IMG/VR virus record: IMGVR_UViG_2850808358_000011
DNA length: 12,053 nucleotides
Strand: one strand, 5' to 3'
DNA from: a virus
Taxonomy: Duplodnaviria > Heunggongvirae > Uroviricota > Caudoviricetes
How positions within the stretch are numbered: position 1 is the first letter of the stretch; every line of letters begins with the position of its first letter. Positions 1 to 1,042 of this stretch are shown piece by piece. The notes beneath the pieces were generated by a model. That model was not told where the DNA came from. It saw only the letters and a list, made by a program, of their open reading frames with translations, and made no database searches. A program made the position numbers and the translations under genes.

Positions 1-507
1 ATGGCATTACCGTTAAGAGATTATTATCCAGTTACCCGCGCCGCGAATTTACTTGGCTGTGAAGTGAACGATTTGTTCCACTGGGCGAGAAGGGGGTACA
101 TAGAATTATATGCGTATATTGATTCGGCTTGTGGTGTTGTTCACATACATGAGCTTGATTATTTTCTCCCATTTATTGATCAGGAGGTTAGGGGGTGGGT
201 TAAATCGTTGCAAGAAGAATCTTTACGGGCGGGACTGGATGATTTTGTGGATGAAAAAATCAACAGAATAATGGGCGTTTTTTGTAAGTTAAATTACCTG
301 AAAGAAGAAAGAATATACTTGTACTCTCTTTTGAACTTTCTGGCTAAAGGATGGGTTAATACGGGCTTCTGCTGGTTAAAAAATCTTAAACATGAAGCCC
401 AGAAGAGTGTCGAAGATGCCTATTATTTCGAGGATGTATGCGCCGAACATTCTTTTAATCGTGATAGCGAATATATTACAGAAGTGGGCGGTTTTTTTTT
501 CTATTGA
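1..507 (+). CDS. Hypothetical protein, N-terminal segment with HTH-like (excisionase/MerR-type) motif; frame ends right after a T9 tract (possibly one gene with 491..1042)
   Basis: ORF track 1..507; N-terminus YYPVTRAANLLGCEVNDLFHWARRGYI resembles a short HTH; ATG is at window position 1 so the true start may lie upstream; stop at 505-507 follows T run 492-500. Confidence 0.5.
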   Translation: MALPLRDYYPVTRAANLLGCEVNDLFHWARRGYIELYAYIDSACGVVHIHELDYFLPFIDQEVRGWVKSLQEESLRAGLDDFVDEKINRIMGVFCKLNYLKEERIYLYSLLNFLAKGWVNTGFCWLKNLKHEAQKSVEDAYYFEDVCAEHSFNRDSEYITEVGGFFFY

Positions 508-1042
508 ATCTCATAATATACTTGAAGATATTGAATTAAATGGATGTTGTAATTGTTCTGGTGAAAATTTTGAAGGTGTATATAGCGGGCTGTCTGTTTT
601 TCTTCCTCAAAGCAATAATATAAATCTAAACAAAAATAACCTGTTTTTATTCAAAGATGATTTTATCACTCTTAATGATTTCTCTTCTGAAAAAGAGGGT
701 GATACAGGAGAGCAATTGAATAAAAAATATTTATATGGCTATGATATGGAGTCAATATATATTCAATTGAACGAGAAGAATACATTCTTTCAACCCTGCG
801 ATGAGTCGATTAGTAGACAAAATGAGCATAAAAAAGAATTAAACCCTCAGCTTGATAAAAAAACGCGAGTATCCAAAGCAGAAAGAGTATTTATACAATT
901 GGCAATAAAAGAACATTACCATGAGTTTATAGACAGTCCGGGAACCATTGCCAATGTATTCACCGCCTTGTCTAAAAAGCATAAAAACCCTTTCGATTTC
1001 GATAAAAGCACCGTAGGCAGGTGGATTAAAACCGCTCGCTAA
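491..1042 (+). CDS. Hypothetical protein, C-terminal continuation in the other frame (AT-rich, N/K/E-rich, no domain recognised); the ORF track reports this frame as 392..1042
   Basis: The frame of ORF 392..1042 reads through the T9 tract; removing one T would join ...EVGGFF to SIESHNILEDIEL... giving about 346 aa; stop TAA at 1040-1042. Confidence 0.45.
   Translation, partial: VFFSIESHNILEDIELNGCCNCSGENFEGVYSGLSVFLPQSNNINLNKNNLFLFKDDFITLNDFSSEKEGDTGEQLNKKYLYGYDMESIYIQLNEKNTFFQPCDESISRQNEHKKELNPQLDKKTRVSKAERVFIQLAIKEHYHEFIDSPGTIANVFTALSKKHKNPFDFDKSTVGRWIKTAR

Follow-up and report, generated by a model that had tools for sequence, protein, structure and literature searches.

A frameshifted gene between int and alpA in a P4-like satellite and the variable protein family to which it belongs

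The first 1,042 nucleotides of the window, i.e., of the whole stretch of 12,053 nucleotides analysed here, hold one gene and not two, and this gene is frameshifted in the present copy. We refer to it as X, and to the loci with which it was compared as L001 to L011. The split is most likely that of a decaying copy or a homopolymer sequencing error and not a programmed switch. The explanation that we consider rather probable as a whole joins three elements: X is a single gene, its interruption reflects decay at a mutational hot spot and not a switch, and its product is a DNA-binding specificity protein coupled to the integrase. The split in itself is of little consequence: it amounts to a homopolymer frameshift of a common kind, or to an error, within a satellite undergoing decay. 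The X family, on the other hand, is a useful lead, as no library tested has an annotation for it and it is tightly tied to the integrase in a lineage of P4-like satellites.

The unity of the split gene

The window matches the 5.13-Mb chromosome CP026877.1 (GCA_002950035.1) without a difference, starting at position 4311313 of the latter. It begins at the ATG of X, right behind a tyrosine integrase gene, and ends in hpt. The features of the split gene are as follows.

1..1042, + strand: gene X, frameshifted copy, 346 codons once one T is deleted
1..507, + strand: truncated product of X, 168 aa (residues 1-166 of X, then F-Y)
492..500, + strand: T9 homopolymer, T8 in intact X alleles
501..1042, + strand: out-of-frame 3′ part of X (residues 167-346)

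The first frame starts with the ATG at position 1 and stops at a TGA (505-507) directly after the T9 run, while a second, overlapping frame is open as far as the TAA at 1040-1042. Deletion of one T from the tract yields a protein of 346 aa, and the preliminary description of this DNA had placed the split correctly in every respect. In the intact frame, the tract reads GGT TTT TTT TCT, i.e., G-F-F-S. The T9 run and a G9 run at 7134-7142 are the joint longest homopolymers of the window. The AT-richness ascribed to the region is also real: the GC content of X is 0.36 (1-1042), against 0.42 in the upstream integrase and 0.475 in the next 6 kb, and it stays between 0.31 and 0.39 over positions 1-1000, against 0.42-0.56 in most of the window.

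Close relatives carry the uninterrupted gene. In the complete E. coli genomes NZ_CP103974 and NZ_CP185789, the locus is 99.3% identical, has a T8 tract and encodes an intact 1041-nt CDS (WP_252333372.1); among the compared loci, X is intact with T8 in L001, L002 and L004. The repaired 346-aa protein (P0004) has exact matches on 38 public contigs, while the 168-aa T9 product (P0005) has an exact record on CP026877.1 only, which is the source genome. The T8 tract and intact CDS of close E. coli relatives thus indicate that the split is real in, and specific to, the window sequence.

More distant homologues give the same picture. They form approximately 60 clusters bearing the names of Salmonella, E. 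coli or Shigella, an exhaustive phmmer search having retrieved 59 representative clusters where a word-indexed search retrieved 3. A profile search returned 56 proteins, nearly all named as hypothetical proteins of Salmonella enterica. All full-length homologues found are single proteins of ~250-380 aa that cross the junction. It had been proposed that a single gene was split by one additional T, and that homologues consistently forming two genes would speak against it; the opposite is seen, all of them spanning the junction as single genes. The tract encodes Gly-Phe-Phe within a conserved (V/I)xGFFGLG motif, in which G164 is invariant across a 20-sequence alignment and G164 and F166 are at least 90% conserved across a 53-sequence alignment. 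Between E. coli alleles, dN/dS is 0.24 for the joined frame and 0.18 and 0.32 for its two halves; both halves are under purifying selection in the joined frame and are thus constrained as one protein. X thus has the makings of a frameshift pseudogene, whose close orthologues are uninterrupted ORFs and which is restored by a single-base change. Both ORFs should be joined as one pseudogene in the annotation. The gene caller used on the source genome predicted ORFs of 168 and 193 aa, yet the reading of these as two genuine genes, a 168-aa HTH protein and a separate downstream protein, is already effectively refuted: every homologue is one protein over the junction, no in-frame start with family similarity is available to the second ORF close to the junction, its first 36 codons (from the ATG at 392) are out-of-frame read-through of X, and the junction falls within a confidently predicted strand of the structural model.

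Decay, error or switch at the T tract

The satellite, flanked by gcd and hpt, comprises in order int, X, alpA, isrK with a C4/CI-type antisense RNA, small ORFs, a toprim primase, a second tyrosine recombinase, ogr/delta, a 236-aa gene, a P2-type capsid-like gene and mazEF. This order and content designate a P4-like satellite of unusual composition. The P4 core genes int, alpA, toprim primase and Ogr/Delta and the C4 RNA are present, while psu and sid are not annotated; in their stead, the element has the P2-type capsid-like gene (PF05125) and the second recombinase. The annotated features that bear on the state of the element are listed below.

1169..1489, + strand: alpA-family gene, 106 aa (PF05930), in the source locus and every related locus
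1791-1872, + strand: isrK (Rfam)
1898-1985, + strand: C4/P4 CI-type antisense RNA (Rfam)
3208..5876, + strand: alpha-like primase, frameshifted, one base missing after 3511
8639..9348, + strand: 236-aa hypothetical gene in the Sid position, frameshifted at 8818
10663..11006, − strand: mazF toxin gene, frameshifted, G5 to G4 at 10807

The isrK and C4 RNAs are matched at the Rfam gathering score (52.1 and 74.7 bits, respectively), and their presence identifies the element as P4-like with RNA-based immunity. Both lie within an 'Icd-like' ORF (1683-2210).

Several other peculiarities of the element deserve description in their own right. The capsid-like gene encodes a ~400-aa protein of the P2 major capsid family (PF05125) at 9411-10619 (L001:23407-24678), the place of psu in P4. 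Its conservation extends to the Salmonella relatives L003, L006 and L008, and a capsid-protein homologue of its own is unusual for a P4-like satellite. The second tyrosine recombinase (5879-6880, Int_N + Phage_integrase, 333 aa) starts 3 nt past the primase stop and keeps its position in every related element, even those with a different primase type (L010, L011). Inverted repeats at 7127-7180 and 7396-7449 (54 nt, 85% complementary, 215 nt apart), set in an AT-rich intergenic region, include the G9 run in their left arm and enclose GGTTAC-type palindromes; the 7127-7449 region may be regulatory, or may represent an origin or a cos or pac region. An array of ACATGC hexamers at 2668, within the small ORF 2573-2791, lacks two of the units (12 nt) that E. 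coli DLI.6n has, a length difference that preserves the frame.

X is not the only broken gene of this satellite. Frameshifts were called against L001 (E. coli DLI.6n), and each was verified by single-base repair. The primase reads for 103 aa to its first stop, and a one-base repair (3512) gives 889 aa matching the L001 CDS. The gene in the Sid position consists of ORFs of 61 and 161 aa, which a one-base repair turns into one of 236 aa. One base is also sufficient to restore the 114-aa MazF of L001, while mazE is intact. By comparison, the 10 kb housekeeping flank shows only 2 indels, both intergenic, and no frameshift in 8.4 kb of CDS. With four frameshifts in the 12 kb of the satellite and none across 8.4 kb of CDS next to it, relaxed selection on a defunct element is favoured over uniform sequencing error. 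In the present copy of X, a +1 change in the T8 tract truncates the protein after residue 166, and this break is most likely one step in the decay of a satellite copy that no longer functions, at a site prone to mutation.

That the tract is such a hot spot is suggested by a survey in which the T7 and T9 products of five X allele backgrounds were predicted and looked up exactly. Seven of the ten predicted products are on record and come from four allele backgrounds; one of them, a Shigella flexneri protein of 178 aa, is exactly the T7 product of the window's own allele. Products of off-length tracts occur on ~8-9 contigs against ~183 with T8, so that ~95% are T8. Exact look-up of the predicted ±1 products of the A7 and A6 tracts of X, used as controls, found 0/10 (Fisher p=0.0015). 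The occurrence of T7 and T9 in four backgrounds and of none at the controls identifies the T8 tract as a specific and recurrent indel hot spot, and the earlier suspicion that it is prone to slippage is borne out. When metagenome, genome and viral contig collections were scanned at the DNA level for a T7-T10 tract in its flanking sequence, 0 matches were obtained. The T8 variants could reflect real slippage, homopolymer miscalls, or both.

This leads to the alternative in which T9 is a homopolymer assembly error and the strain truly carries T8 and an intact 346-aa X, an account that we regard as possible but not likely. The T9 allele is a singleton, found on 1 contig, while the allele that is otherwise identical but has T8 is on 38; the source genome forms one contig of 5.13 Mb and hence probably derives from long reads; the other CDS-breaking indels of the window lie in or beside G runs, with base runs at or beside three of the four satellite frameshifts; and the other T7/T9 variants come mostly from short automatic assemblies. 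However, an error of this kind sits poorly with the concentration of all four frameshifts in the satellite and their absence from the flanking housekeeping CDS. In addition, the frameshift at 3512 is outside any homopolymer, the one at 8818 is combined with a substitution, and the A7 and A6 tracts of X had no variants in 10 look-ups.

It had also been suggested that the tract could be a slippage-prone switch. A functional switch of this sort would operate either as phase variation by replication slippage or by transcriptional slippage on U9. In the transcriptional version, a 168-aa DNA-binding fragment would be made together with some full-length X, as in Shigella mxiE. T7, T8 and T9 do all occur, independently in four allele backgrounds and at this tract only, and such recurrence across backgrounds is also expected of a contingency locus, although sequencing error could contribute to this tract-specific length polymorphism among isolates. 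Truncated X would moreover retain the entire winged-helix and helical domains of the predicted structure. Transcription readily slips on runs of 9 A or T, and such slippage can rescue ORFs that have been disrupted (PMC1088944). T9 (492-500) is a run of at least 9 A/T located at an ORF overlap; the T9 allele of X, being of slippage-prone length, may thus be leaky. We nevertheless judge a switch to be very unlikely. The split ORF is not the conserved state, X being intact on ~183 contigs and off-length on only 8-9, and three further genes of the same satellite, including the primase, are broken as well. In enterobacteria with functional mismatch repair, a T8 tract has a far lower mutation rate than the classical phase-variable tracts. 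Nor do family members share the tract: T8 is found in the E. coli clade only, L006 has T7 and L003 has T6, while L008-L011 have a C, A or G interrupting it. Homologues thus do not keep it, as illustrated by GGT TTT TTT GGG for T7 and by GGT TTC TTT and GGA ATG TTC for interrupted tracts. The best explanation of the tract is that it arises incidentally from the conserved G-F-F being written in TTT codons in an AT-rich gene.

A fast-diverging gene in a fixed slot

The order int-X-alpA is found in 11/11 loci, and X starts 3-13 nt past the int stop. These loci include Salmonella elements that occupy a second att site and have an integrase only 43-47% identical and a DUF927-type primase. An AGGA ribosome-binding site lies 9 nt 5′ of the X ATG, inside the 3′ end of int. 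On the other side, X is followed by a strong hairpin.

1054..1098, + strand: strong hairpin between X and alpA, arms GGGCTTAATAAG / CTTATTAAGCCC

This hairpin contains a terminator-like site (1060-1098) and has an RNA fold of -28.2 kcal/mol (z = -4.65), and comparison of the intergenic regions found similar arms in L008. It is probably the terminator of an int-X transcript. The short gap to int, the AGGA within the int end and the 3′ hairpin make it very probable that X is co-transcribed with int, and X is probably expressed in the resident state, together with int. P4-like satellites are the only elements in which the family occurs, and their hosts are Salmonella, E. coli and Shigella. A tblastn search gave no match to X in phages, and plasmids gave only a 50-residue N-terminal match. 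The motif GGGCTTAWTAAG, considered as a repeated operator, is not enriched elsewhere in the window (5 matches, equalled in 15/200 shuffles).

While the slot is fixed, its content diverges strongly. X proteins are only 25-33% identical across the 11/11 loci, although they belong to the same family throughout, and dN/dS is 0.24 for X against 0.07-0.12 for int and alpA. The clearest case is the comparison of L006 and L008, whose Int and AlpA are 100% identical while X is 31% identical. At the DNA level, identity is 97.7% up to X codon 28 and undetectable from codon 29; its loss spans the rest of X and ~75 nt beyond, ending 40 nt before alpA. The breakpoints of the L006/L008 exchange (~10085-11171) accordingly fall at X codon 28 and ~40 nt upstream of alpA, and most of the X-alpA intergenic DNA, hairpin included, was exchanged along with X. 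Among the shorter relatives (246-314 aa; P0043, P0055, P0059-P0061, P0026 and P0034), the N-terminal winged helix and the GFWALP and DLYIMKxDF motifs are kept, while the protein ends in one of three unrelated C-terminal modules, which indicates that the family is modular. Given the presence of the same family in the same slot in 11/11 loci and two integrase clades, X behaves as a core but fast-diverging gene and not as variable cargo. The earlier notion of separately acquired cargo therefore holds only in part: a hypervariable cassette has indeed been swapped between identical flanks, but it belongs to one family and always occupies the same int-coupled position.

Searches with the repaired protein against Pfam, NCBIfam, PADLOC and PHROGs returned nothing, or noise at E values of at least 0.036. 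Pfam and NCBIfam gave no match to X at E≤10 and none at E≤1 for 20 family members, for which Pfam showed scattered chance matches only; PADLOC recognised 0 families, and X has no recognisable effector domain. The best match of the full-length profile to PDB sequences had an E value of 0.89. AlphaFold (AF2) gave a pLDDT of 30 with a 3-sequence alignment; the final model, based on 53 sequences, has a pLDDT of 77.6 and a pTM of 0.63, and predicts the following organisation.

Residues 8-48: predicted strand-helix-helix-hairpin (winged helix)
Residues 52-150: predicted helical domain
Residues 159-217: predicted beta-rich region, with the junction inside a confident strand
Residues 234-286: predicted disordered linker
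C-terminus: predicted three-helix module, ending ...STVGRWIK

The HTH-like N-terminus noticed in the initial reading thus corresponds to a predicted winged helix, whose strand-helix-turn-helix-beta-hairpin fold superposes, in the model, on solved members of the MerR/excisionase group; the Pfam profiles MerR, HTH_17 and Phage_AlpA are not matched by the N-terminus. The remainder had been described as devoid of recognisable motifs, and sequence, profile and Foldseek searches likewise gave no match to anything known, the model having no Foldseek match in PDB or BFVD at E≤0.001. Within the family, the 3′ part (501..1042) carries a conserved NLFxFKDDF motif. A candidate relationship of the C-terminal module to the archaeal histone HMfA, the sole match of its profile to PDB sequences (E 0.08), was rejected, the model showing three short helices and no long central helix. 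Kinship with AlpA was also discarded (hhalign against the AlpA alignment, probability 0.1%).

Candidate functions and comparison with known systems

The reading of X as an integrase-coupled specificity protein can be formulated as follows. X would be a DNA-binding protein made alongside the integrase in the resident state. Its nearly invariant N-terminal winged helix, of excisionase/MerR type, would bind a conserved target on the satellite, while its hypervariable middle part, cassette-swapped between identical int and alpA genes, may set specificity for a phage-derived partner. This partner could serve the recognition of the helper or the exclusion of competing phages. The putative sensing role is suggested by the position and the variability of X. 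Against the joint explanation stands the P4-type C4/CI immunity RNA, which makes a protein repressor not obviously needed. A difference of ~70% between elements with identical neighbours is typical of proteins at a phage-host or phage-satellite conflict interface, and, if X does set helper or competitor specificity, it would add a protein-level determinant to satellites thought to rely on RNA immunity and AlpA.

A less probable proposal, already put forward in the initial reading and supported only in part, is that X is single-gene anti-phage defence or anti-defence cargo of the satellite, inactivated by the frameshift. Satellites are known reservoirs of defence genes (PMC9122126, PMC13586616), and X is AT-rich, cassette-swapped between identical flanks and faster-evolving than its neighbours; co-transcription with int also means that it is probably expressed in the resident state. 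However, X matches nothing in PADLOC, Pfam or NCBIfam and shows no effector domain, and one family in the same slot of all inspected elements, across two integrase clades, is the pattern of a core gene. X also lies outside the described int-psu hot spot, the equivalent of which here holds mazEF. The conflict-specificity reading is ranked above defence cargo because the slot always holds the same family, because X travels with int, and because it is outside the int-psu hot spot.

Bolder, and improbable in our estimation, is the view that X is the first of an undescribed class of satellite conflict genes, int-coupled, two-ended, DNA-binding and phage-sensing. The hypervariable central domain would sense a specific phage protein, so as to recognise a helper or exclude rivals, the int-alpA slot would be a second hot spot of P4-like satellites, one of allelic diversity, and, within the E. 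coli clade, slippage during replication or transcription at the T8/T9 tract would tune expression.

Returning to X as an integrase-coupled specificity protein, its predicted N-terminus is closest to the winged HTH of MerR/excisionase proteins (Xis, AlpA, TorI), although X has no sequence-profile similarity to these or to the neighbouring AlpA proteins. It is also 3-6 times longer, with ~300 further residues of unmatched fold. YfjH of the E. coli K-12 prophage CP4-57 occupies the same intA-alpA slot and has a similar length (318 aa), but it lies on the strand opposite to that of the X arrangement and is unrelated by profile comparison (hhalign probability 0.9%).

Stl, the master repressor of SaPIs, is encoded by an int-adjacent satellite gene; outside its N-terminal HTH, the protein is highly divergent and varies among elements that are otherwise similar. 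X is likewise int-adjacent, with a predicted N-terminal HTH and a divergent remainder among otherwise similar elements. It differs in being co-directional with int and alpA and not divergently transcribed, and no homology was detected. A Stl-like master repressor is less likely for X because the element carries the P4-type C4/CI RNA.

The defence hot spot of P4-like satellites sits between int and psu (Rousset et al. 2022, PMC9122126; PMC13586616). X resembles it in being variable, int-adjacent and swapped between conserved flanks, but it occupies the opposite flank of int, the one facing alpA. It is thus not placed in the interval from int to psu-delta-sid near cos, and the side of the present element that carries delta, the Sid-position gene and the capsid-like gene ends in mazEF. 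Furthermore, the described hot spot holds unrelated systems, while the X slot always holds one family, in which PADLOC recognised no known defence domain.

Finally, X may be compared with homopolymer frameshift pseudogenes and with ORFs that are disrupted at runs of 9A or 9T and restored by transcriptional slippage, as in Shigella mxiE (Baranov et al. 2005, PMC1088944). X shares with them a coding T run that is one base off-length and splits the ORF, and T9 is slippage-prone. In mxiE and IS elements, however, the split is the conserved state, whereas in X the intact T8 is the norm and the split a rare variant.
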